The position numbers were made by a program, and so were the translations under genes. Below are positions 1 through 47,041 of a stretch of 64,000 bases of DNA, one piece after another. The notes below the pieces were generated by a model. That model saw nothing but the letters and a program-made list of their open reading frames with translations, was not told the DNA's origin and ran no database searches. This stretch comes from an uncultured Bacilli bacterium. Lineage in GTDB: Bacteria > Bacillota_I > Bacilli_A > RF39 > UBA660. Location: assembly GCA_934131695.1 (NCBI GenBank), contig CAKOZV010000001.1:10060-74059 (forward strand), read 5' to 3'. Numbering within the stretch: position 1 is the first letter of the stretch; each line of letters opens with the position of its first letter.

Positions 1-316
1 TTATACCTTTACCTTAAAAAATACTGGTACTAGAACTATAACATATGATGTTTATCTTGATGATGATAGTGATTGTACTGATTGTGCAACCTTCACTCAT
101 AGCTTCTTATCATATGATTTAAAGAAAGATGGGACATCAGTATCAAATGGGAAACTATCAACTAGTAGCAATAAATTAGGTTCTTATTCAATAGCAGGTA
201 ATACTACTCAAAACTTTGAATTTCGTTTATGGTTAAACTTAGATGCTACAAACGATGTTATGGCAAAATCTTTCTACAGTAGAATAAGAGTAGAAGCTAC
301 TGAGCAAGTTGATTAA
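1..316 (+). CDS. 3' end of an unidentified secreted/surface-type protein (5' part outside window)
   Basis: The frame with codons starting at nt 2 is open from the window edge to TAA 314-316 (YTFTLKNTGTRTITYDVYLDDDSDCTDC...FYSRIRVEATEQVD*). Composition is Thr/Ser/Asn-rich. A hairpin terminator follows directly. No family recognised with confidence. Confidence 0.45.
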   Translation, partial: YTFTLKNTGTRTITYDVYLDDDSDCTDCATFTHSFLSYDLKKDGTSVSNGKLSTSSNKLGSYSIAGNTTQNFEFRLWLNLDATNDVMAKSFYSRIRVEATEQVD

Positions 317-346
317 ACTAGTTCACATTAAGAACTAGTTTTTTTT
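316..346 (+). terminator. Rho-independent terminator
   Basis: Perfect 9-bp stem aactagttc/gaactagtt (316-324 / 332-340), 7-nt loop, then a T-run to 346. Confidence 0.7.
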
Positions 347-425
347 GTCACTTTTTTTGGTCTTAAAGTAATTGCTTAACCATATTCCTTCTCGTTAAAA
401 TATAAGTATACAAGGAGGAAATAAA

Positions 426-2720
426 ATGTTTTCGAAATTTAGTGAAGATGCTCAGAAAGCCTTAGTATTAGCTAGAAAAGAAATGAGGACTTTAAAGCAT
501 CCTTATGTAGGAAGTGAACATTTACTATTAGCTATACTATCAATGAAAGAGTTAAAAGTAACTAATCATTTAAAACTATTAGGTTTAACTTATGATAAAT
601 TTAAAGATGAATTAATAAGAGTAGTAGGAATAGGAAAGACAACCAATGACTGGTTTTTATATACCCCTCTTTTAAAAAGAGTACTAGAGACAGCTATGTT
701 AAATAGTAAAGAAAATAAAGAAAGTGAAGTATCAGTTACAGAGTTATTCTTATCATTATTAGAAGAAGGAGAAGGTATAGCTATTAGATTATTAATGGGT
801 ATGAATATAGATATAGATAGACTATATCAAGAGTTTTCTACTTCTTTTACAGAAAAGAAAATAACGGGACATAAAAAATTACTAATTGAAGAGTTTTCCG
901 TTAATCTAAATAAAAGAATTATGTCCAATGAAATAGATCCTGTTATAGGTAGAGAAACAGAGCTAAAAAGAATGATAGAAATACTTTGTAGAAGAACTAA
1001 GAATAATCCACTACTATTAGGGGAAGCAGGAGTTGGAAAAACAGCTATAGTTGAAGAATTAGCAAGACAAATAGTAGAAAATAATGTTCCAAGAGCTTTA
1101 AGAGGTAAAGAGATATTATCTCTTTCGATGGCATCTTTAGTAGCAGGCACTAAGTATCGAGGAGAATTTGAAGAAAGAGTAGGTAAAATACTTAAAGAAA
1201 TAGAAGAACATGATGAGTACCTAATCTTTATAGATGAGATTCATACTTTAGTAGGTGCAGGTGGGGCAGAAGGTGCAATAGATGCATCTAATATCTTAAA
1301 ACCGGCTTTGGCTAGAGGAAAAATACATTTGATAGGAGCCACTACTGTATCTGAATATAGAGAATTTATTGAGAAAGATAAAGCCTTAAATAGAAGATTT
1401 CAAATACTATTAATAGAAGAGCCTAATAAAGAAAAGACTAAAGAAATATTAAAGAAATTAAAACCATTATATGAAGCTTATCACTCTGTATCAATATCAG
1501 ATGAAATGATTGATATGATAGTAGATTTATCAAATACTTATATATATGAATATTATCAACCAGATAAAGCGATAGATATATTAGATGAAGTATGTGCTAA
1601 AGCTAGTCTTATAGAAGATAAAAAAGATAAAGAACTAAAAAAATTAAATAATTCACTGCAAAAAATTGTAATAGAAAAAAAAGAAGCAGTTACAAGTCAA
1701 AACTTTAAAAAAGCATCTAAACTAAAACAAAGTGAAAAAAATTTAATTACTAAAAAGAATGAACTTGAGTTTTCTCTTCTTGGTAAAAAGAAACCTAGGA
1801 AAATAACTAAAGAAATGATAGCAGAAGTTATTTATTTAAAAACAAAAATTCCTGTATATGAAATAATAGAAGGTAATAAGACAAAACTATTTTCCCTAGA
1901 AAAAGAATTATTAAGTAAGATTATTGGTCAAGATGAGATAATCCATGATTTATGTAATTTAACTAAAAAAATACAATTAGGTTTTCAAGATAGTCCTAAG
2001 ATACATACCTTTCTTTTAGCTGGTAGTACAGGAATAGGTAAAACTTATTTAGTAAAAGAATATGCTTCTCTTCTTTATGGAAAAGATCACTTTATTAGAT
2101 TAGATATGAGTGAGTATAAAGAAGAACATTCAGTAAGTAAAATACTTGGAGCTCCTCCAGGATATGTGGGCTTTGATAATCATGAGACTATACTTGATCA
2201 GATAAGACTATATCCTCATTGTGTAATACTATTAGATGAGATAGAAAAAGCATCACCTTCTGTATTAAAACTATTTCTCCAAGTGATGGATGAAGGTTAT
2301 TTAAAAGACTCTAAAGGACGAAAAGTGTCTTTTGAACACATTTTTCTCTTTATGACAACTAATTTAGGAGCAAATAAAAAAGATATTGGTTTTGTGGAAA
2401 CAGTAGATAGTAAGAATACAGATATAGAAGAATTTTTAGGAGTAGAGTTTGTTAACCGTATAGATAAGAAATACTATTTCAAAGATTTAACTAAAGAAGA
2501 TATTGAAAGAATAGTAAATCTAAAATTAGACCTGTTAATAAATGCTTTTAAGAAAAAGAATATAGAAGTAGAAATATCCACAGATATTGTGGAAAAAATA
2601 ATTTCTAAAGCAAACTATGAAAAGTTTGGAGCAAGACAAGTGGATAAAGTTATTGATGATATTGTAACACCTGTTATAGTTGATGCTTGGTATCATGGTG
2701 AAAGTTGTGTTTCTATCTAG
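426..2720 (+). CDS. clpC: ATP-dependent Clp protease ATP-binding subunit ClpC-like (class I Clp/Hsp100)
   Basis: 764-aa ORF with an AGGAGG RBS. N-terminal Clp_N-type repeats. Two AAA+ modules: Walker A GEAGVGKT and GSTGIGKT, Walker B IFIDEIH and ILLDEIEK. Confidence 0.85.
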   Translation: MFSKFSEDAQKALVLARKEMRTLKHPYVGSEHLLLAILSMKELKVTNHLKLLGLTYDKFKDELIRVVGIGKTTNDWFLYTPLLKRVLETAMLNSKENKESEVSVTELFLSLLEEGEGIAIRLLMGMNIDIDRLYQEFSTSFTEKKITGHKKLLIEEFSVNLNKRIMSNEIDPVIGRETELKRMIEILCRRTKNNPLLLGEAGVGKTAIVEELARQIVENNVPRALRGKEILSLSMASLVAGTKYRGEFEERVGKILKEIEEHDEYLIFIDEIHTLVGAGGAEGAIDASNILKPALARGKIHLIGATTVSEYREFIEKDKALNRRFQILLIEEPNKEKTKEILKKLKPLYEAYHSVSISDEMIDMIVDLSNTYIYEYYQPDKAIDILDEVCAKASLIEDKKDKELKKLNNSLQKIVIEKKEAVTSQNFKKASKLKQSEKNLITKKNELEFSLLGKKKPRKITKEMIAEVIYLKTKIPVYEIIEGNKTKLFSLEKELLSKIIGQDEIIHDLCNLTKKIQLGFQDSPKIHTFLLAGSTGIGKTYLVKEYASLLYGKDHFIRLDMSEYKEEHSVSKILGAPPGYVGFDNHETILDQIRLYPHCVILLDEIEKASPSVLKLFLQVMDEGYLKDSKGRKVSFEHIFLFMTTNLGANKKDIGFVETVDSKNTDIEEFLGVEFVNRIDKKYYFKDLTKEDIERIVNLKLDLLINAFKKKNIEVEISTDIVEKIISKANYEKFGARQVDKVIDDIVTPVIVDAWYHGESCVSI

Positions 2721-2737
2721 AAAATAAGTGAAAATTA

Positions 2738-2769
2738 AGAGAAAATGCTTTCTATTGTCTCTTTTTTTT
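2738..2769 (+). terminator. Probable terminator after clpC
   Basis: Imperfect 9-bp stem (one mismatch) at 2738-2746 / 2754-2762, followed by T8. Confidence 0.5.
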
Positions 2770-2797
2770 GTTACAATAATCAGTAGGAGATGATACA

Positions 2798-5284
2798 ATG
2801 GGATTATTTACAAGATTATTTGATCATGAATATAAAGAATTAAAAAAATTTGAATCTTTAGCAGACAAAATAGTAGCCTTAGATGAAGACTATCAAAAGT
2901 TATCTGATGAAGAGTTAAAGAATAAAACAGAGGAATTTAAGAAACGTTTAGAAAATGGAGAAACACTAGAAGATATTTTAGTAGAAGCTTTTGCTACCGC
3001 AAGAGAAGCAGCTTATCGTGTTATAGGAGAAAAACCTTTCTATGTTCAGATACTAGGTGCTTTAGCAATACACTATGGTAATATAGCAGAAATGAAAACT
3101 GGTGAAGGAAAAACACTAACATCCGTTTTACCAGCTTACTTAAATGCATTAGATGGAAAAGGAGTACATATCATTACTGTTAACGAATATCTAGCTACTC
3201 GTGATGCTGAATGGATGGGTGGAATTCATAGATTTTTAGGTCTAACAGTAGGAGTTAATACAAGAGAATTAAGTCCTAAAGAAAAGCAAGAAGCTTATGC
3301 TTGTGATATTTTATATTCTACTAATAATGAAATTGGATTTGATTATCTAAGAGACAATATGGTTATTAGAAAAGAAGATAGAGTACAAAGACCATTAAAT
3401 TTTGCTATCGTTGATGAGGTTGATTCAGTATTAATAGATGAAGCAAGAACTCCATTAATTATTTCTGGTGGACAATTAGTTAGTGCAAACCTTTATCAAG
3501 ATGCTGATAGCTTTGTTAAAGGATTAAAAGATGATGTGGATTATCTATATGATGAAACTACTAAGAGTGTAACATTAACTGATGAAGGTAGTGAAAAAGC
3601 AGAAAAAGCTTTTCGAGTTAAAAATCTTTATGAAGTAGAAAATGCAACTTTAGTACATTATATTAATCAAGCTTTAAGAGCAAACTATTCTATGAAATTA
3701 GATGTAGATTATGTTGTTCAAGATGGAGAAGTTGTCATAGTAGACCAATTTACTGGACGTTTGATGAAAGGACGTGCTTATAGTGATGGACTTCATCAAG
3801 CAATTGAAGCTAAAGAAGGAGTTCGTATTAATCAAGAAACTAAAACTTTAGCAACTATTACTTTCCAAAACTTATTTAGAATGTATAAAAAATTATCTGG
3901 TATGACTGGTACTGCTAAAACAGAAGAAGAAGAGTTCCGTGATATTTATAATATGTATGTTATTTGTATTCCAACTAATAAACCAGTTGAAAGAATTGAT
4001 GCTTCTGACTTAGTATTTGCTACTAAAAATGCTAAGTATAAAGCTATTATTAATGAAGTAAAAGAAAGATATGCTAAAGGTCAACCAGTATTAATTGGTA
4101 CTATTGCTATTGAAACTAGTGAATTAATAAGTGCTTTATTAAAGAAAGAAAAGATTCCACATGAAATATTAAATGCTAAGAATCATGCAAGAGAAGCTGA
4201 AATTATTTCTAAAATTGGTCAACATAAGTCAGTTACTATCGCTACTAATATGGCTGGTCGTGGTACTGATATTAAATTATCAGATGAGATAAGAGCACTT
4301 GGTGGATTATGTGTTATTGGTACTGAACGTCATGAATCTCGTCGTATTGATAATCAGTTAAGAGGACGTTCTGGTCGTCAAGGAGATCCTGGATTTACAC
4401 AGTTCTTTGTATCTATGGAAGATGATTTAATGGTTCGCTTTGGTAGTGAAAAAATTAAAGAAATGATGACTAGTTTTGGATTTGGTGATCAAGCTATTCA
4501 AAACAAATACTTTTCTAAAGCTATTACAACTGCTCAAAAAAGAGTTGAAGGAAATAACTTTGATGCTAGAAAACAATTATTACAATATGATGATGTAATG
4601 AATACTCAACGTGAAATCATGTATGGTAGAAGAAATGAAATACTAGATAGTGAATCTGTTCATGAACAAGTTCTTGAATGTATGAGAAATTATGTTACTG
4701 ACTTAGTTAAGTCACATACTATAGATGGTATTTTAAGTGAACAAGATAAGAAAGAAATAGTATCTTTTGCTAACGAAAATTTACTAGATAAAGATATTAC
4801 TGAAAATGATATTAGTTCACTATTAGATGATGATATGATAGACTTCTTATATAATAAAGCAAAAGAGGAATATGAAGAAAAACTTAGTGATGTTCCAGTA
4901 GAAATAACTAGTGAATTTGAAAAAGCATTATCTTTACAAGTCATTGATAACTATTGGATGGAACAAATTAATGTAATGAGTCACTTACGTGAAGGTATCT
5001 ATTTACGTAGTTATGGTCAAGAAGATCCATTAAGAGCATATAGTACTGAAGGATTTGATTTATTTGATCAAATGTTACAAAAGATTGATCATGATGTTAC
5101 TATATTCTTACTAAAAGCAGAAATACAAAAAACTGTTGAAAGAAAACCAGTTACAAGAAATGTTCAAACTAATGATGATAAATCAGATTCAGTAAAGAAA
5201 CCAAAGAAAAGTAAAAAAGTAGGACGTAATGATCCTTGTCCATGTGGTTCAGGAAAAAAATATAAACAATGTTGTGGTAAATAA
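2798..5284 (+). CDS. secA: Preprotein translocase ATPase SecA
   Basis: 828 aa. Motor motifs MKTGEGKT, DEVDSVLIDEARTPLIISG and TNMAGRGTDI. C-terminal zinc-binding SEC-C motif CPCGSGKKYKQCCGK. Confidence 0.97.
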   Translation: MGLFTRLFDHEYKELKKFESLADKIVALDEDYQKLSDEELKNKTEEFKKRLENGETLEDILVEAFATAREAAYRVIGEKPFYVQILGALAIHYGNIAEMKTGEGKTLTSVLPAYLNALDGKGVHIITVNEYLATRDAEWMGGIHRFLGLTVGVNTRELSPKEKQEAYACDILYSTNNEIGFDYLRDNMVIRKEDRVQRPLNFAIVDEVDSVLIDEARTPLIISGGQLVSANLYQDADSFVKGLKDDVDYLYDETTKSVTLTDEGSEKAEKAFRVKNLYEVENATLVHYINQALRANYSMKLDVDYVVQDGEVVIVDQFTGRLMKGRAYSDGLHQAIEAKEGVRINQETKTLATITFQNLFRMYKKLSGMTGTAKTEEEEFRDIYNMYVICIPTNKPVERIDASDLVFATKNAKYKAIINEVKERYAKGQPVLIGTIAIETSELISALLKKEKIPHEILNAKNHAREAEIISKIGQHKSVTIATNMAGRGTDIKLSDEIRALGGLCVIGTERHESRRIDNQLRGRSGRQGDPGFTQFFVSMEDDLMVRFGSEKIKEMMTSFGFGDQAIQNKYFSKAITTAQKRVEGNNFDARKQLLQYDDVMNTQREIMYGRRNEILDSESVHEQVLECMRNYVTDLVKSHTIDGILSEQDKKEIVSFANENLLDKDITENDISSLLDDDMIDFLYNKAKEEYEEKLSDVPVEITSEFEKALSLQVIDNYWMEQINVMSHLREGIYLRSYGQEDPLRAYSTEGFDLFDQMLQKIDHDVTIFLLKAEIQKTVERKPVTRNVQTNDDKSDSVKKPKKSKKVGRNDPCPCGSGKKYKQCCGK

Positions 5285-5292
5285 ACCTGCAA

Positions 5293-5324
5293 ACCCGCAT
5301 AAAATAAGGAATTGCGGGTTTTTC
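5293..5324 (+). terminator. secA terminator
   Basis: 7-bp stem acccgca/tgcgggt (5293-5299 / 5313-5319) followed by TTTTT. Confidence 0.7.
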
Positions 5325-5442
5325 TATGATTACAATATTTAGGTAATTATAGGCATGTCTTTTGTCTTGGATAAGTTTTAGATAAGTCTTTTCACCAAAA
5401 TCAGCCGTAAAATAGGGCGTATATGATATAATTAAAAAGGAA

Positions 5443-6120
5443 GTGATAACAATGAATAAAATAAATTCTAAAAATTTATATACTGATAGATTGGAATTGA
5501 GGATTCCAACTATGGAGGAGCAACATAGATTATGGGAAATATTAATTAATGAAGATATCAATCAATATTATTTTCCTACTCCAGATAGAATATTTGATAA
5601 AAATAATTTGTCTAAGGACAATATAGAAGATTTAAAAAAAGCAAGACGAATTTTTACAGAACAATTGTCTGATTGGAAAAGACAAGAACCTTTTTATGAA
5701 AAGAAGATAGAATCCATCCAAGCACAAGATGATAGTCAAAAGTATACTTGGAGTATTTTTCTTAAAGGAACCAATACAGTTATAGGTCAAATAACTTGTC
5801 AACCAAAAGATAATGAACCTGAAAATATAAGAGATGTTGGATGGTTTATTGATCCTAATTGTCAGGGAAAAGGCTATGCAACAGAAGCAGCCGTTGCAAT
5901 ATTAGATTTTATGTTTAATGAAGTAGAAATAACTGATATTAAAACAAGTGCAGCTGAAATAAATCCTGGATCATGGAGAATTATGGAAAAACTTGGATTT
6001 GAATTCGTTGGAACAAAAAAATCATCATATTTTAAAGATGATGAGATTTTGATATCTAAAGAATATCATGGAACTAAAGAATTATTCTTAAATAGAAACA
6101 ACAGTATTAAGAAAAAATAG
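5443..6120 (+). CDS. GNAT family N-acetyltransferase (RimJ/RimL-like)
   Basis: 225 aa. Acetyl-CoA motif region WFIDPNCQGKGYATEAAVAILDFMF and the typical RimJ/RimL-type N-terminus (LYTDRLELRIPTMEE). Confidence 0.75.
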   Translation: MITMNKINSKNLYTDRLELRIPTMEEQHRLWEILINEDINQYYFPTPDRIFDKNNLSKDNIEDLKKARRIFTEQLSDWKRQEPFYEKKIESIQAQDDSQKYTWSIFLKGTNTVIGQITCQPKDNEPENIRDVGWFIDPNCQGKGYATEAAVAILDFMFNEVEITDIKTSAAEINPGSWRIMEKLGFEFVGTKKSSYFKDDEILISKEYHGTKELFLNRNNSIKKK

Positions 6121-6250
6121 ATTTTTTTTAGATAAGTTATTAGACAAGTTGTTGAATAAAAACTTGTAATATTTCAACAAAAAATCATTAAATTAAAATA
6201 AAAAATAACAATTTAAAAGGAAAAAATTACTAGGTTATTTTAATATTTTA

Positions 6251-6337
6251 CCATGTGGAAGTGGTAAAAAATATAAGCAATGTTGTGACAAATGACTCGT
6301 AAAGTCCCATAAATAAAGGGAAAACGCGAGTTTTTCT
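6251..6337 (+). repeat. Degenerate non-coding copy (copy 2) of the secA 3' end plus terminator
   Basis: ccatgtggaagtggtaaaaaatataagcaatgttgtgacaaatga... aligns with secA 5240-5325. It would read PCGSGKKYKQCCDK* but has an in-frame stop a few codons upstream. The downstream hairpin/T-run region is also homologous. Confidence 0.8.
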
Positions 6338-6455
6338 TTTTATCAAAAAATTGCCCAAAATATGGGCTGGAGCCACTTTGGAGACATTTTGATTTAAATA
6401 TTGGACTATACAAGTAAAATCTATTATGGTTTCATGGTATAATTATGTATGAAAG

Positions 6456-6944
6456 TTGGTGATTAAATTGAATTATGAAATAATTGATGTAAAACAAGAT
6501 GAAAAAGAAAAGTTATATAAATTATTACAGTATGCTTTATATGATGGTTCGCAATACATTGATAATGACATAAATAAAGATTGTATATTTGAATATAGAT
6601 GGTTTGATAATTATTTTACCGATAATGATCGAAATTCATATTTTATTAAAAGTGGAAATGCCTATGTAGGAATGGTTATGGTAAACGAGAATTTGAAATT
6701 TAATAAAGACGGTAAATGCATTGCCGAGTTCTTAATAATGCCAAGATTCAGAAGAAATCATATTGGTAAAAAGGTTGCATATGAAATATTTGAAAAATTT
6801 AAGGGCAATTGGGAAGTTCAACCGATGGAGAATAATCCTATTGCATATTCATTTTGGAAGAATATTATATCAGAATATACAAATGGTAATTATATAACTA
6901 AAAATGATGGAATAGAGGATGTATTCGTTTTTAATAATAAATAA
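6456..6944 (+). CDS. GNAT-like acetyltransferase
   Basis: 162 aa. Motif A-like FLIMPRFRRNHIGKKVAYEIFEKF. Non-ATG start (TTG 6456, or GTG 6459 / TTG 6468), so the start is uncertain. Confidence 0.55.
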   Translation: MVIKLNYEIIDVKQDEKEKLYKLLQYALYDGSQYIDNDINKDCIFEYRWFDNYFTDNDRNSYFIKSGNAYVGMVMVNENLKFNKDGKCIAEFLIMPRFRRNHIGKKVAYEIFEKFKGNWEVQPMENNPIAYSFWKNIISEYTNGNYITKNDGIEDVFVFNNK

Positions 6945-6956
6945 AGGTGTTAATTT

Positions 6957-7439
6957 ATGCAAATAGTAGAATATGAAAATAAGTATTTAGGAGATGTCAA
7001 AGACTTATTAGTTGAACTTGAAGAGTATATTGTATCAATAGATAAAGATCATTTGGATCAAGTTCATCCTGAATATAGGGAAAAAATGGCAGTTTTAGAT
7101 TTAGAAGAAGTTAATAAGAACAACGGTAAATGTTATTTGGCAGTAGAAAATAATAAAGCAATTGGCTTAATCATGGGTTGCATATTCCCATATGATAAAT
7201 ATGATTATCTAGACTATAAATGTCCAAAAAGAGGAGAAATTACAGAATTAATCGTTACAAATAAAATTAGAAGTAAAGGCATAGGTCAAGAACTAATAAA
7301 TAAAATGGAAGAATACTTTAAATACGTTGAATGTGAATATGTAATAGTTGATGTATTCGCCTACAATGATATTGGTAAGAATTTTTATAATAAAAAAGAT
7401 TATCATGCAAGAATGGAAACAATGATAAAGAAAATATAG
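6957..7439 (+). CDS. GNAT family N-acetyltransferase
   Basis: 160 aa. Motif A ELIVTNKIRSKGIGQELINKME. Lies 12 nt after the previous ORF. Confidence 0.7.
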   Translation: MQIVEYENKYLGDVKDLLVELEEYIVSIDKDHLDQVHPEYREKMAVLDLEEVNKNNGKCYLAVENNKAIGLIMGCIFPYDKYDYLDYKCPKRGEITELIVTNKIRSKGIGQELINKMEEYFKYVECEYVIVDVFAYNDIGKNFYNKKDYHARMETMIKKI

Positions 7440-7792
7440 TGAGGGAAGCAAATAATATGAAACATGAAATGAAATTAAACAATGGACCATTTGAACGAAT
7501 AAAAAATGGAACAAAGACTATAGAATTAAGATTAAATGATGAAAAAAGACAATTGCTAAAAATTAAGGATTTAATAGAATTTACTAATAGAACTAACAAC
7601 GAAAAAATGTTAGTTGAAATCGCGAACTTATATCATTATCCATCATTCGAAGAATTATATAAACATTTTGATAAGGTAGCAATGGGATATGATGAAGATG
7701 ATATAGCTGATCCGAAAGATATGGAAGAATATTATTCGCCAGAAGAACAATCTAAATATGGTGTATTAGGTATTAAAATTAAAAAAATGTAA
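7439..7792 (+). CDS. ASCH domain protein
   Basis: 117 aa. N-terminus MKLNNGPFERIKNGTKTIELRLNDEKR is typical of the ASCH (ASC-1 homology) beta-barrel family. The likely true start is ATG 7457, with a GAGGGAAG RBS. Abuts the preceding GNAT gene. Confidence 0.55.
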   Translation: MREANNMKHEMKLNNGPFERIKNGTKTIELRLNDEKRQLLKIKDLIEFTNRTNNEKMLVEIANLYHYPSFEELYKHFDKVAMGYDEDDIADPKDMEEYYSPEEQSKYGVLGIKIKKM

Positions 7793-7810
7793 TTTTATTA
7801 GTAAAATATG

Positions 7811-7855
7811 TCAGGTCAAAGACATGAAAAGTTTTTTTCATAGTCTTTGACCTGA
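7811..7855. repeat. Long near-perfect palindrome/hairpin downstream of the ASCH gene
   Basis: tcaggtcaaagac (7811-7823) pairs with gtctttgacctga (7843-7855). The inner atgaaaa/ttttcat extends the stem to about 20 bp. There is no external T-run, so it is a possible bidirectional terminator or a protein-binding palindrome. Confidence 0.5.
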
Positions 7856-8081
7856 ACTATTGCTTGACAATATAAAATCCTTATACTAAAAGGCTGAACG
7901 CAGTGTTGATAGAAGCAACAACTGAGAAACTCCGGTTGTGAGATTTTTCTTTGCTTGAAAAAATGGTATAAATTGTAAAGACTACAGCACTATCGACACA
8001 TTATCTACATTTAACAACTTTTCAAAAATACGTTAAAATTCTTATAACAAAAGGGAAAAACAAGAATCGTTCACTTCGAAA

Positions 8082-9893
8082 GTGGTGTTGGTAAAAATGT
8101 GTTATAATTGTAATAGAGGTGTATTTATGAAAAGAAATAATTTGAAGAAGGTATTAGGAAAAATATATAGATTATTAGATTTTAAGCAAAAAATAAAATT
8201 TTTAATTATTATATTAATAATGATTGTATCAGCTGTTTTAACTCAGATGACTCCAAAAGCAATTGGATGGCTAACAGATGATGTTTTAAATGTAAATGGT
8301 GTTACGTTTGAAAAAGTTGTTCCTTTTCTTATTTTGATTCTTGTAGTTAATGTAGGTAATGAAATAATCAAGATTATAAGAAGAGTAATGGTAGAAGATG
8401 TTGCAACAAGAACTGAAAAGAAAGCTCGTGGAATGGTTATAAAATCACTATTAATGGCCCCATTATCATATTTTAGAAAGAATATGATAGGTAATATTCA
8501 TGGAAGAATGAATAGATGCTTAGATGGTACTATAAAATTAGAAAAATTATTATTTATGGATTTTGCTCCAGCTGTTTTTAATAGTGTGGCTGCTATTATA
8601 ACAATTTTCTTAACTTTGCCAATTACACTTGCTTTGCCTATGTTAATGGTTATTCCTATAGGTGTTACTATTGTTTTAGCTCAAATAAATAGTCAAAGAG
8701 GTATAAGAGTAGAATTGTTAGAAAGAAAATCAAGTATGGATGGTACAATAGTTGAACTTATTAATGGAATAGAAGTTATTAGAATTTGTGATAGTGTTGA
8801 CTTTGAAACAAATAGGTTTGATACTAAGTCTGAATTTTTAAGAAATAAAGAAATGAAACATCATAAAGCGATGGCATTATATGATTGTTTAAAATTTATA
8901 AATCAAGCGGTGTTCACGGTATTAATAATAGGAATATCTACTTATTTAGCAACTAAAGGTATAATATCAGTAGGTGCTGTATTAACAGCTTATTTATGTT
9001 TTAATCAATTAACAAAACCATTAGAAGAATTACACAGAATATTTGATGAAGTATCAGAATGTACAATACTAGCAAGTGATTTCTTTGAAATGGTTGAAAT
9101 ACCAAATGATTTCTCATATTTGGATACGAAAAGAGAATTAAATAATGAAGTAACTGATGAAATTATAAATATAAAAAATTTAAGTTTTCACTATTCGGAA
9201 GATAAAGATAAGTTAATTCTAAAAGACTTAAATATTGATATAGAAAAAGGAATGTATTTAGGAATAGCTGGTCCTTCAGGATGCGGTAAATCATCATTAA
9301 TTAAATCAATTTGTAAATTAGAAAAAGCAGATGGTACTATCATTTTGGATGATACAAATATTGATAACTTAAATAGAAAAGATATTTCTAATATAATTGC
9401 CTTAGTTCCTCAGAGCCCATTTTTAATTGCTGGAACAATTTATGAAAATATTACTTATGGAATTAATAGAGAAGTATCAATAGAAGAAGTAGAAGAAGCT
9501 GCTAAAAAAGCCTATATACTTGATTATATAGAAGAACTACCAGAAAAATTCGATACATTAATATCTGAAGGTGGAAATAATCTTTCAGGAGGACAAAGAC
9601 AAAGAATTGCAATTGCAAGAATATTCTTAAGAAAGCCTAAAATATTAATATTAGATGAAGCAACAAGTGCTCTTGATAACACATCAGAAAAACATATTCA
9701 AAGTGAAATAGAAAAATTACAAAAAGAAAACAATACTACTATAATAGCAATTGCCCATAGATTAACTACTTTAAAGAATTGCGACAGAATAATTGTATTG
9801 AATAAAGGTAAGATTGAAGAAAGTGGAAAATTTGATGAATTGATTGAAAAAGAAGGAATCTTTAGTGACATGTATTATGGAAAACTAAAATAA
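8082..9893 (+). CDS. ABC exporter, fused permease/ATPase (type I exporter)
   Basis: N-terminal 6-TM domain. NBD with Walker A GPSGCGKS, signature LSGGQRQRIAIAR and Walker B ILILDEATSALD. The likely true start is ATG 8127 (MKRNNLKK), with an AGAGGTG RBS. Confidence 0.85.
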   Translation: MVLVKMCYNCNRGVFMKRNNLKKVLGKIYRLLDFKQKIKFLIIILIMIVSAVLTQMTPKAIGWLTDDVLNVNGVTFEKVVPFLILILVVNVGNEIIKIIRRVMVEDVATRTEKKARGMVIKSLLMAPLSYFRKNMIGNIHGRMNRCLDGTIKLEKLLFMDFAPAVFNSVAAIITIFLTLPITLALPMLMVIPIGVTIVLAQINSQRGIRVELLERKSSMDGTIVELINGIEVIRICDSVDFETNRFDTKSEFLRNKEMKHHKAMALYDCLKFINQAVFTVLIIGISTYLATKGIISVGAVLTAYLCFNQLTKPLEELHRIFDEVSECTILASDFFEMVEIPNDFSYLDTKRELNNEVTDEIINIKNLSFHYSEDKDKLILKDLNIDIEKGMYLGIAGPSGCGKSSLIKSICKLEKADGTIILDDTNIDNLNRKDISNIIALVPQSPFLIAGTIYENITYGINREVSIEEVEEAAKKAYILDYIEELPEKFDTLISEGGNNLSGGQRQRIAIARIFLRKPKILILDEATSALDNTSEKHIQSEIEKLQKENNTTIIAIAHRLTTLKNCDRIIVLNKGKIEESGKFDELIEKEGIFSDMYYGKLK

Positions 9894-10014
9894 ATTTTTA
9901 TCTACATTTTAGTAGAGTTTTGCCAAAAACGATTTAATGTGAATTAACATAAAATAACGTGTTTTAAAGGGATTAGAATAGTATCTAAGATCTCAGAATT
10001 GCAAAACATCGCAT

Positions 10015-10087
10015 CTGTGTGGCTCAGGAAAAAAATATAAAAATTGTTGTGGTAAATAAGCTCGCAAGTCTGCATAAAATAAGGAAT
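10015..10087 (+). repeat. Degenerate non-coding copy (copy 3) of the secA 3' end plus downstream sequence
   Basis: ctgtgtggctcaggaaaaaaatataaaaattgttgtggtaaataagctcgcaagtctgcataaaataaggaat aligns with secA 5240-5312 at roughly 85% identity, including the sequence after the stop codon. It would read CGSGKKYKNCCGK*. Confidence 0.8.
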
Positions 10088-10233: not shown

Positions 10234-10375
10234 AATGATATTAACATAGTGCTTTGACTTGTGTTTATTTCAAAACTTGTTCACAAAAATTAAAATTATG
10301 TAGTAAAATAAAGGTGTGAACAATAAATATATTTGTTAATATCTTTTAAAATCTAAGTAGGAATGAGAAAAAAGA

Positions 10376-10780
10376 TTGAAAAAAGATTTAGTAACAGCAG
10401 AAATAATAGTTAAAGAAAATAAAGTAGGAATACTAAGAGTTGGAAATGTTAATTATATTTCTTTAATTGATTCAGTAAAGTATCAAAACTCAAATGAGCC
10501 ATCTTTTACAGTTAAAAACTGGTTAAGAAGAATAAATAATATTGATTATATTGGCCTATGGGAAGAAATTCATAATCAGAATTTTAATTTGATCGAATTC
10601 GACCAAATTAAAACTGAGTATGGTAAAAATTCGTTTGCAATGTCACCAACGCAATGGATAAAAAGGACTAAAGCAATAGGAATAATTTCAAAAGGAGGGA
10701 GATATAGTATTGGAACTTATGCTCATCCAGATATTGTATTTGAATTAAATACAGGAGAACAAATTAAGTTTCAAAACTAA
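10376..10780 (+). pseudogene. KilA-N domain gene, 3'-truncated
   Basis: YISLIDSVKYQNSNEPSFTVKNWLRRINNIDYIGLWEEIHNQNFNLIEFD...AIGIISKGGRYSIGTYAHPDIVFE matches the KilA-N DNA-binding family pattern as I recall it. Full-length members continue for about 130 more residues, but here the frame runs into direct repeat A and ends (..NTGEQIKFQN*). TTG start with a weak RBS. Confidence 0.5.
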
Positions 10781-12052: not shown

Positions 12053-12855
12053 CTTATAAAGAAAATAAAAGAAGTTCTCTAGCTATATATTTAATATTGA
12101 GATTTTTAGTTATATTATGTATGGTTCTTCAACTTATAAGAGGAGATTTAAATAATGCTTTATTATGTTTATTATCATTAATACTATTATTTGCACCATT
12201 ATTTATTCAAAATAAATTTGAAATAACTTTGCCAGATGGATTAGAAATAGCTATATACCTATTTATATTTTCTGCTGAAATATTAGGCGAAATTAACAAT
12301 TTCTATGGAATAATTCCTTATTGGGATACAATGTTACATACAATTAATGGATTTTTAGCGACAGCTGTTGGTTTTTCCTTAGTAAATTTATTAAACAATA
12401 ATAGTACACATATTAATTTATCACCATTTTATTTGTGCTTAGTAGCTTTTTGTTTTTCTATGACGATAGGAGTATTATGGGAATTTTTTGAATATGGAAG
12501 CGATAAAATATTAAAACTCGATATGCAAAAAGATACGATTGTACAAGAAATATCATCAGTAGCATTAAATCCTGATGGTAAAAATAAGCCAGTCATAATT
12601 GATAATATTGGAAAAACGGTTATTTATGATACTAAAGGAAATATAATCCAAACAATAGATAACGGTTATTTGGATATAGGTATAAATGATACTATGAAAG
12701 ATTTATTTGTTAATTTTGTTGGTGCTTTAGTATTTAGTTTCTTTGCTTACTTTGGCTTGAAACATAATGAAGATAATTTATTTATAAATAATTTTGTTCC
12801 AACAAAAGGTAAAAGAGAAATGGCAAAATCTGTAGCAAAATTTCTATCAAAATGA
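12025..12855 (+). CDS. Polytopic membrane protein of unknown function
   Basis: 276 aa with several long hydrophobic helices. RBS GGGTGAGAG. Ends just before IR-L. Confidence 0.6.
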   Translation: MKVQKLIKMAYKENKRSSLAIYLILRFLVILCMVLQLIRGDLNNALLCLLSLILLFAPLFIQNKFEITLPDGLEIAIYLFIFSAEILGEINNFYGIIPYWDTMLHTINGFLATAVGFSLVNLLNNNSTHINLSPFYLCLVAFCFSMTIGVLWEFFEYGSDKILKLDMQKDTIVQEISSVALNPDGKNKPVIIDNIGKTVIYDTKGNIIQTIDNGYLDIGINDTMKDLFVNFVGALVFSFFAYFGLKHNEDNLFINNFVPTKGKREMAKSVAKFLSK

Positions 12856-13058: not shown

Positions 13059-14171
13059 ATGTACAATAATGATAATTTTGAGAAGTTAAAAAAAAGAATA
13101 GATAAATGTAGAAATTGTTATATTCAAGGACCAACAGGACCTAAAGGAGAAAAGGGAGATACTGGAGATAGAGGAATACAAGGACCTACTACTATAGAAG
13201 TAGGTATTACAGAAACAGTAGAGTCACATCAAGAAGCTAAAGTAGAAAATATTGGTACCAATGAAGATGTAGTTTTAAGATTTAGAATACCAAAAGGGGA
13301 GCAAGGGATAGAGGGAAAAATAGGACCCCAAGGAATTCCCGGACCTAAAGGAGATAAAGGAGATATTGGACCCCAAGGAATAAAAGGTGAAAAAGGAGAT
13401 CAAGGACCAGCCACTATTCAAATTGGAAATGTTGAAACAGTTGATCCGACAAAAGATGCTGAAGTTGTAAATACTGGTACACCTGTTGATGTAGTTTTAG
13501 ATTTTAAAATACCAAAGGGAGAGAAAGGCGACCAAGGAGAAATGGGACCTAGGGGATTACCAGGAGAAATAGGAAGAACAGAACATATAGCTATTGATGA
13601 GACAGAAACTTTAGAACCAGGTGAACCAGCTCAAGTTATGGATACTTTTGAAAACTGGGTACATCATTTAGCATTTTTAATTCCAAAAGGTGAAAAAGGT
13701 GCTACGGGAGAAAGAGGTCCACAAGGACCAGCCGGACCACCAGGAACAGAATTTGTATCTTCTTATGGGATTAGATATTCAATGTCTACTACTCCACTTG
13801 CTTTACTTCAAGGAACAGATAATATTATTCCTTTACCTGAAAAAGGAGCAGCTTTTCTTACCGAATATCCAGATGGTAATTCAATTAAAATAAAAGAAAA
13901 TGGAGTTTATCTCATATCTTATTCATTATGTGGTGCTACCAATGAAGAATGTTCTTTAACTATGTCAGTAAGAGCTAATGATATATTACAACCAGCAACA
14001 AATCTTACTAGTGAGTTTCAAGCACAAATAATTAATTCTATAAGTTCATCTACCATTGTAGCACTAAGTAAAGATGATTTAATAACATTAAATGTAAAAC
14101 CATCTATGGCAGTTAACATAACGTTTAATGGAAGTACTAATGCGATATTAAGTGTTGTAAAAATACATTAA
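13059..14171 (+). CDS. Collagen-like triple-helix repeat protein with a C-terminal BclA/C1q-like globular domain
   Basis: Four Gly-X-Y blocks of about 7, 13, 7 and 7 triplets (GPTGPKGEKGDTGDRGIQGPT etc.). They alternate with three roughly 35-aa modules ending (F/L)xIPKGE(K/Q)G (TIEVGITETVESHQEAKVENIGTNEDVVLRFRIPKGEQG and variants). The C-terminal roughly 140 aa is beta-rich (ENGVYLISYSL...AILSVVKIH). AGGAGG RBS and no signal peptide. Confidence 0.85.
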   Translation: MYNNDNFEKLKKRIDKCRNCYIQGPTGPKGEKGDTGDRGIQGPTTIEVGITETVESHQEAKVENIGTNEDVVLRFRIPKGEQGIEGKIGPQGIPGPKGDKGDIGPQGIKGEKGDQGPATIQIGNVETVDPTKDAEVVNTGTPVDVVLDFKIPKGEKGDQGEMGPRGLPGEIGRTEHIAIDETETLEPGEPAQVMDTFENWVHHLAFLIPKGEKGATGERGPQGPAGPPGTEFVSSYGIRYSMSTTPLALLQGTDNIIPLPEKGAAFLTEYPDGNSIKIKENGVYLISYSLCGATNEECSLTMSVRANDILQPATNLTSEFQAQIINSISSSTIVALSKDDLITLNVKPSMAVNITFNGSTNAILSVVKIH

Positions 14172-14217: not shown

Positions 14218-16095
14218 ATGGTAAAGGAAAGTGATAATATGGAAATAATTAATAATAATACAGTGGTAGTAACTAATAGTGAAGAATTAAAAGATGTACT
14301 AAGTAATACAAATGATTATAATTATGTATATTTAGGTAATGATATAACTTTAACGAGTGGATTTAAAATAAATGCTAATAAAACAAAAGTAACTATTGAT
14401 GGTACATATAATAATATTAAAGCAACCTATACAAATAATTTAACTGATAGTACAGATGTTATAACGGTTAGTACTACGAATAAAAGAATTATACTTAAAA
14501 ATATGAATATAGTTAGTTCCCATACCTATAGCGTAGTTTATGTACCATCTCATCCTAATTATTCTAACTTAACTGTTGAGTATAATAATATTAATTTTAA
14601 TGGTATAGAACTATCTAATAATTACTATGGTTCAACAAAGATTATGGATTCTATTATAACTGTCAGTGATACAAATGGTGTAACTGCTCAAAAAGTATGT
14701 GATTCTAATAGAATAATAATAGGTGGAAATACAACAATTACAAGTAATTCCACTACCAACACAGTATTCTTCTTTAATGATGTAATACCATCTTATATTA
14801 AAATAGTACCCAATAGTAATGTAAATATCACAACTAATAAAGAATTAATGAATGGTACTAATCGACTTGATTTAATAGTAGGACATGGAGCAGAATTCCT
14901 TTTAACTACTGGAAATGGTTTTGCTATCACAACAACACATGGAGCTAGGAATGTCATAATTGAACAAATGGCTAATTTTACTTTTATAGAAAAGAGCCAT
15001 CAACGAGTCCCTATGTGGAATGTATTTGGTGATTTTAAAGTTTTAGAAGGAGCTAGTATATCAGTACTAAATACTTATATGACTACTCCAACTGATAATT
15101 ATAATATCTATTTTAAAGGTACAAACCAAAAATTTATATTAGATAATCCTAAATATGTGAATATCTATACTAAAAATGCCAATGTAGTATATGCCAATAA
15201 TTCTGTTGATTTTTCCTTTAAATTTTCAAGGATTAATATGTGGATTTATGCTCTAGATTATACAAGTGCTTGTACACTAGATGACCAACCTGCATTTTTC
15301 TGGTATAAAGAAAATACTCCTGCTGAAATAACTGGCTCTTTTAGTAAAGATACTACTACAGTTACATCTCACAATTTTACAGATAGTGAATTAAGCTCAA
15401 TATCAGATATAACTAGTTTTAAATTTCAAGGTATAAAGATATTAACTTTAGGACAATTAAAAACTAATGTACATCCAGTCCTCAATTCTACCAATACCAT
15501 ATCAGGTCATACCACACCATATGCTAATGTAAAAATAGAATATGATAGTAAAAACTTACTAGCAACTGCTGATGAAAATGGTTTATTTGAAGCTGATCTT
15601 GATACTACTATTCCTGATAATACAAGAATTAAAATAATATCTTGTTTAAATAGTTGTTATACCGAAAGAAAAGTGACAGTACCATTTAGTGGAGAATTAA
15701 CCCTTTTAAGAGTAACAGAGAATATTCCTTTTAGTATGAATCCGTCATCTATTAAACCACTTATTTTACCTAAAAAGAATCAAACAATAGTAACAGTAGT
15801 TGATAGTAGAATAAATAGTAGTAAGTGGAAACTATATTTAAACTATACAAATCCAATGATAGAAAAAGAGGGAAAAGTATTAATAGATTCATTAGTCTTT
15901 AAAAAGTTTGATAATGAGGAGATTATTTTAAAGACTAATAAGAAACTAATATATGAATCAAGTGATAATGGTGGAAATATAAGTGTAAGTAATGTTACTT
16001 TTTCTACGGATAAAGGATTATTACTTAAACCGAGTAAAGATTTATTAGAAGATGAGGATTATTCTACATTAATAATTTGGAGTGTAGAGGAGTAA
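14218..16095 (+). CDS. Large Asn/Thr-rich protein, probable right-handed beta-helix (adhesin or pectate-lyase-like fold)
   Basis: 625 aa. The likely start is ATG 14239 (MEIINNNTVVVTNSEELKDVL). Repetitive N/T/I/V-rich strand pattern (NITLTSGFKINANKTKVTIDGT...). No signal peptide. The fold is an inference only. Confidence 0.45.
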   Translation: MVKESDNMEIINNNTVVVTNSEELKDVLSNTNDYNYVYLGNDITLTSGFKINANKTKVTIDGTYNNIKATYTNNLTDSTDVITVSTTNKRIILKNMNIVSSHTYSVVYVPSHPNYSNLTVEYNNINFNGIELSNNYYGSTKIMDSIITVSDTNGVTAQKVCDSNRIIIGGNTTITSNSTTNTVFFFNDVIPSYIKIVPNSNVNITTNKELMNGTNRLDLIVGHGAEFLLTTGNGFAITTTHGARNVIIEQMANFTFIEKSHQRVPMWNVFGDFKVLEGASISVLNTYMTTPTDNYNIYFKGTNQKFILDNPKYVNIYTKNANVVYANNSVDFSFKFSRINMWIYALDYTSACTLDDQPAFFWYKENTPAEITGSFSKDTTTVTSHNFTDSELSSISDITSFKFQGIKILTLGQLKTNVHPVLNSTNTISGHTTPYANVKIEYDSKNLLATADENGLFEADLDTTIPDNTRIKIISCLNSCYTERKVTVPFSGELTLLRVTENIPFSMNPSSIKPLILPKKNQTIVTVVDSRINSSKWKLYLNYTNPMIEKEGKVLIDSLVFKKFDNEEIILKTNKKLIYESSDNGGNISVSNVTFSTDKGLLLKPSKDLLEDEDYSTLIIWSVEE

Positions 16096-46663: not shown

Positions 46664-47041
46664 GGGGATGTCTTGGTTTCGACAGGAATAGTAGAGCATA
46701 GATAGCAAGTCGAATTATCTACGTCACAGATTAAACCAGAATAACTGGAAACAAAATTAAAAATGTACTTGCAAACTTTGGTGGAAACACTAGTTTAGCA
46801 TTTGCCTAAGAATAGGCTTGTACGCTGTCTTTCTTAATTTCTTACGTTAAGAATGTACGGTTCAATTTAGTAAGATATAATTATTTATCGTCTTAGTAAA
46901 TAATTGAATATTATAAGACTAGAATTATAGTTTGGTTGATTATTTCTTTACTATAATTCGAATTTAATAAATAATCTAAACTTGTAGAAGTTTATGTAGC
47001 TCTATTTTTGGACAGGGGTTCGATACCCCTCATCTCCACCA
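46664..47041 (+). ncRNA. ssrA: tmRNA (ssrA)
   Basis: The 5' end GGGGATGTCTTGGTTTCGACAGG pairs with the 3' tRNA-like end GGACAGGGGTTCGATACCCCTCATCTCCACCA. The internal tag frame ends at TAA 46807-46809 (..GNKIKNVLANFGGNTSLAFA*). An extended -10, TGTTATAAT, lies at 46644-46652. Confidence 0.9.

Follow-up and report, generated by a model that had tools for sequence, protein, structure and literature searches.

A co-oriented cassette array at the 3' end of secA in uncultured gut Bacilli, very probably built by serial site-specific insertion

The DNA analysed here (the window, a stretch of 64,000 nucleotides from an uncultured Bacilli bacterium) carries an array of small gene cassettes and additional copies of the secA 3' end directly downstream of secA. 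Very probably, this array was built by serial site-specific insertion at the secA 3' end, with the target regenerated each time and the integrase-less cassettes presumably moved by a recombinase acting in trans. In the proposed mechanism, a population of integrative elements in an uncultured gut Bacilli lineage would use the 42 nt that end secA, beginning with TGTGG and including the stop codon, as attB. The attP of a circular element would join the element's left flank to a synonymous imitation of the secA end, which is followed by a stop codon and, in most cassettes, by a terminator as well. A tyrosine recombinase would swap strands within about 8 bp at TGTGG, so that secA would retain an intact zinc-finger end, supplied by the element, and the old end would be displaced downstream as an untranslated orphan. 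Repeated insertion at the regenerated site would yield a co-oriented array; the window would hold three units, the copy between the second and third having been deleted, and the stump downstream of the array would derive from an older element, probably a former integrase carrier.

The secA gene of the ORF list lies at 2798..5284 on the + strand and encodes an 828-aa protein with the Pfam domains SecA_DEAD, SecA_PP_bind, SecA_SW and SEC-C (residues 810-828); the attachment-site core (5243-5284, + strand) comprises its last 14 codons. A repeat search grouped the secA 3' end into one direct-repeat family whose three co-oriented members begin at 5243, 6254 and 10018 (5243-5312, the true secA end, 6254-6323 and 10018-10087). 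A 22-nt degenerate probe matched these three copies, all on the + strand, and nothing else in the 64 kb; by chance no match is expected (100 shuffles). A sequence-only reading had likewise described two co-oriented extra copies of the secA end and its post-stop DNA; it let them begin at 6251 and 10015, whereas the homology starts 3 nt further inside, at TGTGG (6254 and 10018). Each copy runs from TGTGG, the Cys-Gly codons of CGSGKKYK, to the stop and about 30 nt further. The third is 87% identical to the secA end over 70 nt, 28 nt of which lie 3' of the stop, in line with the similarity past the stop claimed for it earlier; the second is 66% identical without gaps, and one gap improves the alignment. 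Neither extra copy is the end of a long ORF, since only 15 and 12 sense codons, respectively, lie upstream, and the two would translate, as first written, as (P)CGSGKKYKQCCDK (copy 2) and CGSGKKYKNCCGK (copy 3), each followed by a stop.

Copy 1 (5243..5330, + strand) is of attL type and forms the functional secA end; after its core TGTGG...TAA (5243-5284) come a terminator hairpin, whose loop contains ATAAAATAAGG, and the conserved cassette left end (CTATGATTACAATATTTAGGTAATT). Copy 2 (6254..6339, + strand) is an orphan whose core (6254-6295, encoding CGSGKKYKQCCDK with a Gly to Asp exchange and the stop TGA) also precedes a terminator hairpin, and it contains the inverted repeat TTTTACCA/TGGTAAAA around TGTGGAAG; a functional version of this type of end is the secA terminus in loci L008 and L034. 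The hairpins of copies 1 and 2, each with a U-run after it, are stable, at -14.4 and -14.1 kcal/mol, respectively (z about -3 to -3.8). Copy 3 (10018..10087, + strand), an orphan with its core at 10018-10059, has kept the 5' arm of the terminator and CATAAAATAAGGAAT and lacks the 3' arm. It is not the native end of the species, since the motif ATAAAATAAGG, which derives from the element, lies within it.

At least three cassettes are present in the window, with a GNAT gene, a GNAT-GNAT-ASCH set and an ABC exporter gene. The gene content assigned earlier to two modules stands; their number does not, as the second module consists of two cassettes joined at about 7936. Cassette 1 (5331..6253, + strand), flanked by copies 1 and 2, carries one GNAT gene (5452-6120; Pfam Acetyltransf_3). 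Its right end, about 110 nt long (6141-6253) and conserved, is termed type a (...AAAAGGAAAAAATTACTAGGTTATTTTAATATTTTACCA) and is also joined to other cargo, for example in L022 (12330-12476, 91% identical). This cassette is absent from L008 and occurs elsewhere with differing neighbours on both sides (cluster 0, 18 occurrences). The fused cassettes 2a and 2b are flanked by copies 2 and 3. Cassette 2a (6340..7935, + strand) carries two GNAT genes (6456-6944 and 6957-7439) and an ASCH gene (7457-7792; all Pfam), having lost both its own right end and the copy after it. It is missing in L001 and L003 and is the sole insert of L034, where a native orphan copy bounds it; the two versions share 97.7% nucleotide identity, although the SecA proteins of the hosts are only about 72% identical. 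Cassette 2b (7936..10017, + strand) carries an ABC exporter gene (8082-9893, fused permease and ATPase; Pfam ABC_membrane and ABC_tran) and a type b right end; in L001 and L003 it stands alone as a cassette of 2.15 kb with a copy on either side, and its upstream neighbours vary. At the joint, a terminator 3' arm and T-run (GTTGTGAGATTTTTC; 7918..7950, + strand) are all that remains of the lost copy, as seen from this terminator-like site and from alignment to L001, which has a full copy (12579-12679) before the ABC cassette. Since the junction at about 7936 lacks a copy, deletions also shape the array.

The earlier suggestion that elements integrate at the secA 3' end and bring a replacement end is borne out by matched empty and occupied sites with junctions at TGTGG, and strains lacking modules do have their junctions exactly at the repeat (L008 and L093 compared with the window, and the L022 and L034 pairs). 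L008 (Clostridium sp. CAG:451, 98% identical) corresponds to the window minus cassette 1, with secA joining a copy-2-type end directly. Two further comparisons, L022 with L031, L028 and L029, and L034 with L026, pair an occupied with an empty site; in both, the orphan and its downstream flank match, from TGTGG onwards, the native secA end and flank of the empty relative at 92-96% identity (L022 12440-13587 against L031 10853-12000, 96%; L034 12705-13900 against L026 4348-5544, 92%). The orphans of L022 and L034 retain the species-native end CCGKNK before the stop, while secA there now terminates in CCGK and a stop followed by the cassette terminator. In strain L093, secA is 98.3% and the array 99.3% identical to the window, with an additional 5,229-bp element inserted at window position 5243 that encodes a DUF6602 nuclease-like protein, a tyrosine integrase and proteins of 66 and 781 aa. 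The insertion converts the functional secA end of the window into an orphan, the copy 1 sequence lying at 7792 behind the integrase element, which points to ongoing insertion in the same species. Polymorphisms place the exchange at or before +8 (L093), +5 (L008) and +2 (L022) of TGTGG, hence within the first 2-8 nt in all three resolvable pairs, a small sample; in L034 polymorphisms do not place the exchange point. Type a cassette ends form an inverted repeat around an 8-bp spacer at the exchange point, and this 8-nt inverted repeat is limited to type a junctions.

These comparisons refute the alternative that decayed SEC-C-motif genes unrelated to secA left the extra copies as their 3' ends, a reading with practically no probability. 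SEC-C motifs do end many unrelated proteins, and most of the pattern matches in IMG/VR (n=79) are the ends of phage ORFs of 80-250 codons. However, the likeness of the copies runs past the stop into native downstream flanks, homology starts at the same base in every case, orphan and flank equal the native secA end and flank of empty relatives, and the window's own functional end is an orphan in L093.

Of the loci fetched for comparison, 73 contain two or more copies (up to five), and in every one of them the copies are co-oriented; the first copy always ends a long ORF, secA, and later copies never do. In L001-L052, the 10 kb preceding secA contained no copy. Among 65 distinct modules of 0.7-5.2 kb (median 1.6 kb), 32 contain a single ORF, and 125 of the 130 module ORFs are oriented as secA. 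An integrase is missing from most small modules, which have conserved ends around varied cargo, including GNATs, methyltransferases, ABC exporters and defence candidates. In class II cassettes (type a, b, d or e ends), unrelated cargo lies between a common left end (about 85 nt) and a common right end (about 70 nt), the same short ends being carried by more than 30 different cargos. The neighbours of a given cassette differ from locus to locus, which must be taken with caution, since metagenome assemblies supplied all of the comparison data, and some mis-joins that mimic shuffling could arise at conserved boundaries of 100-230 nt. Orphan copies decay, with lesions in 21 of 104 distinct orphan cores as against 0 of 58 functional ends, and the variation among copies is 3-periodic. 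It is very improbable that the array is an assembly artefact, or a slippage duplication of the secA end into which genes were inserted later by unrelated means. Repeats can indeed lead assemblers astray, and the window is metagenome-derived; yet assemblies of at least four other samples (L092, L096, L097, L105) independently show this arrangement, so it is not an artefact of this record. Moreover, the copies differ by 13-34% and are therefore not recent duplicates, and each cassette moves between species with its own ends.

The anticipated integrases with a matching attachment site were found in elements adjacent to secA and bounded by orphan copies, as in the L093 insertion at 5243. These class I elements encode a tyrosine integrase family with the Pfam domains Arm-DNA-bind_4, Phage_int_SAM_3 and Phage_integrase, whose intact homologues P0002 and P0005 lie one gene past secA and are followed by orphan copies in 10 of 11 places examined; in the closest strains the integrase is split by a frameshift. 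Other integrase lineages adjoin secA in L013, L025 and L035, and two prophage contigs in IMG/VR are bounded by secA-end copies. Of a circular form, only an attP-type junction between two tandem element copies (99.65% identical) was seen, in L095, which is not proof of a circle, and the assemblies contained no small-cassette circle. The window, its three cassettes included, has no integrase homologue anywhere in its 64 kb. Downstream of copy 3, a probable truncated left end of an integrase-bearing element (10268..10780, + strand) comprises a promoter-proximal region and a KilA-N ORF (10376-10780) whose match to the candidate defence protein PDC-S22 (PADLOC) is confined to the N-terminal 122 of 281 positions. 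Homologous regions lie directly 3' of a secA-end copy and 5' of a RhuM/KilA-N gene and an integrase in L006 and L009, and directly 3' of an orphan copy in L004, consistent with a remnant of such an element. The view that the island has no resident integrase hence describes its present state, but given this apparent truncated end an integrase may once have been resident.

A different reading would restrict site-specific integration to the first duplication or duplications and have the small cassettes shuffled by homologous recombination, for example after uptake of foreign DNA, at boundaries made up of right end, 42-nt core and left end (about 150-230 nt), with no recombinase involved. The length of these boundaries and their 85-95% likeness speak for it, as do the lack of an integrase in the window and in any element with class II ends, and the copy missing at 7936, which points to recombination or deletion not centred on TGTGG. 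It is nevertheless unlikely: in the distant hosts L022 and L034, single cassettes sit in otherwise empty sites, and these recipients share just the imperfect 42-nt core, a poor RecA substrate. In addition, exchange falls within the first 2-8 nt of the core in three of three resolvable cases rather than being spread along it, the occurrence of the same short ends on more than 30 cargos suggests that the ends are selected as sites, and the type a end and the core together make an inverted repeat with the exchange point between its arms. Returning to site-specific insertion, we infer that the integrase-less cassettes are excised and inserted by a recombinase in trans, akin to the cis/trans mobilisation of CIMEs, rather than being inert remnants. 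Mobilisation of class II cassettes by the class I integrase is unproven, because the arms of the two classes are dissimilar.

Temperate phages and islands integrate at the 3' ends of tRNA, tmRNA or protein genes, with an attP that carries the duplicated end. The elements described here similarly use a conserved target and replace the displaced end, and the IMG/VR prophages occupy this very site; here the target is a conserved protein motif, CxCx8C[CH], so that copies vary mainly at third codon positions. In staphylococci, composite SCCmec/SCC islands form at the 3' end of rlmH (orfX) through large serine recombinases (Ccr). They share serial insertion at a conserved-gene 3' end, gene-end direct repeats that delimit units and recombinase-less units (pseudo-SCC) within the array, but differ in host phylogeny, in their much larger units and in recombinase and target, which here are a tyrosine integrase with an arm-binding domain and secA. 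Another known case is tandem accretion of ICEs or IMEs and CIMEs at the 3' end of a housekeeping gene, as for ICESt1/ICESt3 at fda in Streptococcus thermophilus; CIMEs lack integration and transfer genes, retain attL and attR, and are decay products of ICEs or IMEs mobilised in cis by an accreted ICE or IME (PMC5704250). Common features are a tyrosine integrase acting at a protein-gene 3' end that the element restores, attL/attR direct repeats, integrase-less units with both att sites, as in cassette 1 and the fused cassettes 2a and 2b, and newcomers that enter a resident's att site to give tandem arrays, accretion with an integrase element being observed in L093. In contrast, the target here is the zinc-finger codons of secA, no unit contained a conjugation or mobilisation gene, and at 0.7-5 kb, often with one gene, the units are much smaller. 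Since the integrase-less units look like a family with conserved ends and diverse cargo, not like independent decay products, a CIME-type origin by decay is doubtful for cassettes with these short common ends. Tycheposons and the tRNA-anchored islands of Prochlorococcus (bioRxiv 10.1101/2020.12.28.424599) resemble the present array as cargo-carrying tyrosine-recombinase elements whose repeated integration at one site displaces older elements inward and scatters degenerate remnants and partial target copies; their target is a tRNA gene rather than protein-coding codons, they usually carry replication modules, and that work describes no miniature single-gene cassette family with common ends.

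Sedentary chromosomal integrons offer a further parallel, with short, co-oriented, mostly single-ORF cassettes between recombination sites, cargo with many acetyltransferase, toxin-antitoxin or defence genes and many without known function, and cassettes that are shuffled and common to several species. However, there is no IntI and no attI, the array is headed by the essential gene secA, and the integrases have Arm-DNA-bind_4 N-termini and reside within elements. Nor are the sites attC hairpins with a GTTRRRY exchange point, as exchange occurs in the duplex-like core TGTGG of secA-like codons; apart from the terminator 3' of the core there is no strong hairpin, and with a terminator at each site expression from a common Pc promoter is unlikely. 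Taken together, site-specific tandem accretion is known in kind, the use of secA zinc-finger codons as its target and the miniature cassette family appear to be undescribed, and the result is an integron-like array built by a different route, within the final 42 nt of secA.

The secA gene (2798-5284, forward strand) is followed, in the same orientation, by two further occurrences of its last 14 codons and about 30 nt past the stop codon. Copy 1, the end of secA itself, occupies 5243-5312, copy 2 lies at 6254-6323 and is 66% identical to copy 1 without gaps and closer if one gap is allowed, and copy 3 lies at 10018-10087 and over 70 nt shares 87% identity with copy 1. A degenerate 22-mer probe hits only these three sites in the 64 kb, where chance would be expected to give none. 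Since just 15 and 12 sense codons precede them, the two extra copies are orphans, displaced secA ends without a long ORF. The three co-oriented ends and the position of the extra two outside long ORFs are thus confirmed as the sequence-only reading had described them, and the genes it had listed between the copies, three GNATs, one ASCH protein and one ABC exporter, match the annotation. A strong hairpin with a U-run follows copies 1 and 2, and copy 3 has the 5' arm of the hairpin only. The nearest records belong to uncultured gut Bacilli ('Clostridium sp. CAG:451', with Candidatus Onthousia related), and several independent assemblies show the same arrangement; Fusobacterium (27% GC) was considered as the source and rejected.

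The pattern recurs in other members of the group. Among the secA regions fetched from 52 related species representatives, nine carry orphan copies downstream of secA, one to four each and all co-oriented, and none carries one upstream. When the set was widened with contigs at strain level and with a scan of metagenomes that took one cassette end as its seed, 73 loci with two to five copies were obtained, none of them in mixed orientation, and the 127 modules between copies (684-5229 bp, median 1.6 kb) fall into 65 distinct clusters. In the 73 loci it is the first copy that closes a long ORF, secA, and later copies never do so; in every orphan the homology to secA begins at one fixed base, the T of TGTGG. 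Most hits to the SEC-C codon pattern in IMG/VR loci (L112-L190; L numbers denote related loci or contigs compared with the window) are the true termini of phage ORFs 80-250 codons long, so a motif scan alone over-calls attachment sites and the orphan test, few upstream sense codons, is needed beside it.

Three comparisons of empty and occupied sites, of the kind the sequence-only reading had itself proposed as a check, support its claim of serial insertion at the secA 3' end. A 98% identical record (L008) lacks cassette 1, the GNAT unit next to secA, and window segments 1-5325 and 6251-7257 abut there, overlapping in the repeat only. The second locus (L022) carries a 1,587-bp insert encoding a 184-aa protein and a SAM methyltransferase, and from TGTGG onwards its orphan and 1.1 kb downstream are about 96% identical to what L031, L028 and L029 have natively at the end of secA and beyond it. 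The third (L034) holds the GNAT-GNAT-ASCH cassette of the window, with 97.7% of nucleotides identical in spite of a SecA identity of only about 72%, and its orphan copy, together with the flank, corresponds to the end of secA in L026. In both L022 and L034 the orphan has retained the species-typical CCGKNK* and secA ends in CCGK* followed by the cassette terminator, which shows that the incoming DNA supplies the new secA end and the old end is displaced. Two other explanations fail on these loci. If the extra copies had come from decayed, unrelated SEC-C genes, the orphans would not match empty sites as they do in L022 and L034, and the comparison with L093 described below speaks against this origin as well; the idea of a conserved boundary that had inserted, MITE-like, between genes already present was rejected since the single cassettes of L022 and L034 show half-boundaries joined to native sequence. 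L006, considered as a clean empty site, was dropped, as a RhuM-integrase element sits directly after its secA.

Two classes of unit use the site. Class I units (3.2-5.2 kb) contain an integrase and run from a left end CATAAAATAAGGAAAA...TTGTTTGTCAAC to a right end that is an AT-rich arm, GAAATAYSAATAATAYTATAAATATT...GATAATATRGGA. Class II units (0.7-2.5 kb, usually one gene) are free of an integrase and begin with a terminator hairpin and then CTACTTACAATTTTTAGGTAATTTTACCTCAAAAAAGGC, the conserved left end being the terminator plus CTTACAATTTTTAGGTAATTTTAC... and the conserved right end ...AAAAGGAAAAAATTACCTGGTTGTTTTAATATTTTACCA, with ...AATTTAAAAGGAAAAAATTACCTGGTTGTTTTAATATTTTACCA in the commonest type, a. 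These ends are common to more than 30 cassettes of unrelated cargo; cassette 1 of the window (5331-6253) is a typical class II unit, cassette 2a (GNAT-GNAT-ASCH, 6340-7935) has a variant left end and cassette 2b (ABC exporter, 7936-10017) a type-b right end. The post-stop motif ATAAAATAAGG comes with the elements and is missing from native flanks. The ORFs are co-oriented with secA in 125 of 130 cases, and about half of the modules contain a single one. No integrase was found in a search of the large modules with class II ends, and a consensus scan for cassette promoters stayed at background level.

A scan of 112 proteins met GNAT acetyltransferases (14) and SAM methyltransferases (6) most often as cargo, besides integrases, Fic, DUF4379 and Peptidase_S51 proteins, extra aminoacyl-tRNA synthetases, ABC exporters and restriction-like nucleases; the cargo of the window received no specific NCBIfam name. 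Cargo at the secA site, that of class I units included, has matches to candidate anti-phage systems in PADLOC (L081 8635-12764, L093 2803-3639, L007 10950-12005 and window 10376-10780), the candidates being PDC-M59A/B (a 340-aa protein with Fic), a PD-T4-6-like kinase, a DUF6602 protein resembling NucC/PD-DExK nucleases, PDC-S19 (DUF3644 with a restriction-like domain) and, in the window, a truncated PDC-S22. L081 also has a separate 1.9-kb module of an MqsR-like toxin and a SocA/Panacea antitoxin. The extra synthetase genes (L009 11435-12427, L215 8349-9614) are of a class I Trp/Tyr type and of a type with a class II core and an HGTP anticodon domain. Second copies of aminoacyl-tRNA synthetases are a classic route to antibiotic resistance, and such a role might be imagined for the module-borne ones.

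The modules adjoining secA in L042, L009 and L006 code for a tyrosine recombinase that has an Arm-DNA-bind_4, a SAM-like and a catalytic domain. Full-length homologues, such as P0002 (82% identity) and P0005 (78%), lie one gene after secA in 10 of the 11 places examined; the elements bearing integrases of these two types terminate in an orphan copy and are often followed by a second, integrase-less module and a further copy before the native terminator. More distant integrases stand immediately behind secA in L013, L025 and L035, and integrases of cultured phages, at most 35% identical, are uninformative on att specificity. The most direct evidence for insertion at the secA end is L093, whose secA and array are 98.3% and 99.3% identical to those of the window and in which an additional integrase-bearing element of 5,229 bp has entered precisely at window position 5243. 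Copy 1 and its terminator, the functional end in the window, are an orphan there, and secA ends in the element's own version. In L095 (1-7832) the 5.2-kb integrase element occurs twice in tandem, 99.65% identical over 2.6 kb, and the joint is composed like an attP, of a type-c arm, the core and a class I left end. Either the element really inserted in tandem or the assembler followed a path through a circular form. The element of L093 and L095 seems to have been active recently.

Six diverged alleles of the secA-targeting integrase (L042 12571-12590, L093 ~4240, L009 ~12980, L006 ~12630, L217 and L218) are split at the same spot, GAAT(C/T)AAAAAAAAC(G/A)AT(G/A)TA(A/G), where an A8 run is followed, two codons on, by a stop in frame 0. 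A -1 shift on A_AAA_AAA or one added A in the mRNA restores the full-length integrase, and intact alleles have A9 or a different sequence at this position. The split alleles look like cases of programmed frameshifting, transcriptional slippage or phase variation and not like pseudogenes, and the conserved -1 site may throttle the integrase.

Polymorphisms compared between attB, attP, attL and attR put the exchange no further along than +8 (L093 against the window), +5 (L008 against the window) and +2 (L022), counted from the T of TGTGG; those of L034 do not place it. The crossover therefore lies at the extreme left of the repeat, and the remaining 35 nt or so serve to rebuild the reading frame. 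Such a position is expected of a tyrosine recombinase with a short overlap and not of homologous recombination along the repeat, which speaks against the alternative that the integrase-less cassettes are reshuffled by homologous recombination only. The same cassette has different neighbours in different loci, a shuffling part of which assembly error could explain. Cassettes of the commonest type end in 8 nt, TTTTACCA, that mirror TGGTAAAA on the far side of an 8-nt spacer, TGTGGAAG, and the inverted-repeat matches average 5.8 of 8 at junctions of this type against 3.5-4.0 at others, a modest clue that core-type binding sites may flank the exchange point.

An intact CGSG[KR]KYKxC[CH]G[KRE] end is still encoded by 83 of the 104 distinct orphan cores, the core being the 42 nt from TGTGG through the stop. 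Missense, nonsense or frameshift changes affect 21 of these 104 and none of 58 functional ends, and variation is mostly at third codon positions (entropy 1.19 against 0.36-0.38 at the first two), which indicates that the cores change in the manner of coding sequence for as long as they end secA and that drift follows their displacement. Copy 2 of the window shows such drift, with Gly to Asp and a TGA stop, when compared with the functional version in L008.

Copy 3 retains the element-type motif and is hence not the native end. Beyond it, 10268-10780 matches the left end of the RhuM/KilA-N and integrase elements of L006, L009 and L004, a match that stops after a truncated KilA-N ORF, and the oldest visible event was probably the arrival of an integrase-bearing element, the integrase being deleted afterwards. 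The ABC, GNAT-GNAT-ASCH and GNAT cassettes would then have entered nearer secA, and the copy between 2a and 2b would have been lost, leaving a terminator arm at ~7936. After the ASCH gene, 7805-7861 forms an inverted repeat (19-nt arms, 89% complementary, 19-nt spacer) and about 70 nt (7862-7935) have no counterpart in the same cassette of L034 and L098; 7805-7935 is where the normal right end of the cassette and the next copy are expected. A fourth degenerate copy at 10268-10325 was rejected, as it resembles a second ATAAAATAAAGG motif in the left end of the RhuM/KilA-N elements, and motif searches up to 64 kb found no further remnants. The variable region behind secA (5285-28020) is larger than the repeat array: the backbone common with L007 resumes at ~17162 (17.2 kb) and the family-wide backbone only at 28.0 kb, with a conserved three-gene block that starts at 28021 and lies just 2.0-2.3 kb after secA in L024 and L044. 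The genes intervening before these points include HAD, NUDIX and DUF2238 genes, a collagen-repeat BclA-like protein (13059-14171, GC up to 40%) and a Big_6 protein (14218-16095). Genes for tmRNA and tRNA are classic integration targets, and no duplicated 3' ends of the tmRNA (46664-47041, tag GNKIKNVLANFGGNTSLAFA) or tRNA-Thr(CGT) (54383-54458) genes were found anywhere in the window.

Two IMG/VR prophage contigs, each about 35-40 kb long and derived from other low-GC bacteria (L146/L128, IMGVR_UViG_3300028833_003330; L178/L143, IMGVR_UViG_3300029134_000104) have a secA 3' end at one side and an orphan copy from TGTGG, with the integrase on the secA side. As both run from secA end to orphan, whole prophages use the same site outside this lineage; the sole full SecA match (L146) is 53% identical to that of the window. 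In L128 the left flank of the orphan is like 'type d' cassette ends.

It is possible, though rated at less than even confidence, that the class II units are not debris but a functioning system of gene cassettes, with an evolutionary origin separate from that of integrons, and are moved by a recombinase supplied in trans. A tyrosine recombinase so supplied would capture, excise and insert the cassettes at the secA zinc-finger codons, and the very high conservation of this motif would admit the same cassette to hosts whose SecA is only about 70% identical. The secA array resembles an integron in its architecture and cargo but is not one, as IntI, attI and attC are absent and a terminator stands at each site. 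SCC elements form composite islands at rlmH, which the secA array resembles by analogy, but its recombinase is of the tyrosine type and it is therefore not SCC. Parallels in process are the streptococcal ICEs and IMEs, for which CIMEs were defined and which likewise show site-specific tandem accretion with integrase-less CIMEs (PMC5704250), and tycheposons, in which newcomers also push older elements deeper into the island (bioRxiv 10.1101/2020.12.28.424599). In contrast to ICEs and IMEs, no conjugation or mobilisation genes were found in the secA-site units, which are therefore neither. The mechanism itself is of a known kind and the protein-motif target appears to be new; the family of miniature cassettes is apparently undescribed, and the limited literature searched contained no description naming the secA 3' end as an attachment site.

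Taken together, insertion at the secA end explains, as the sequence-only reading had proposed, how a 5-kb accessory island beside an essential gene grew without a resident integrase, no integrase homologue being found in the 64 kb, and the fresh insertion in a sister strain shows that the process is still running. The SEC-C zinc-finger codons are a recombination target conserved for protein reasons, a protein-gene analogue of tRNA 3' ends, used by small elements, cassettes and prophages across a little-studied family of gut Bacilli as well as in other Firmicutes, and orphan SEC-C ends behind secA offer a simple annotation marker for such islands in metagenome-assembled genomes. If the cassettes are actively mobilised, they would constitute a second, integron-independent route by which bacteria stack and exchange single accessory genes, such as acetyltransferases, methyltransferases, exporters, extra aminoacyl-tRNA synthetases and defence genes, and a tractable place to study the birth of gene cassettes.
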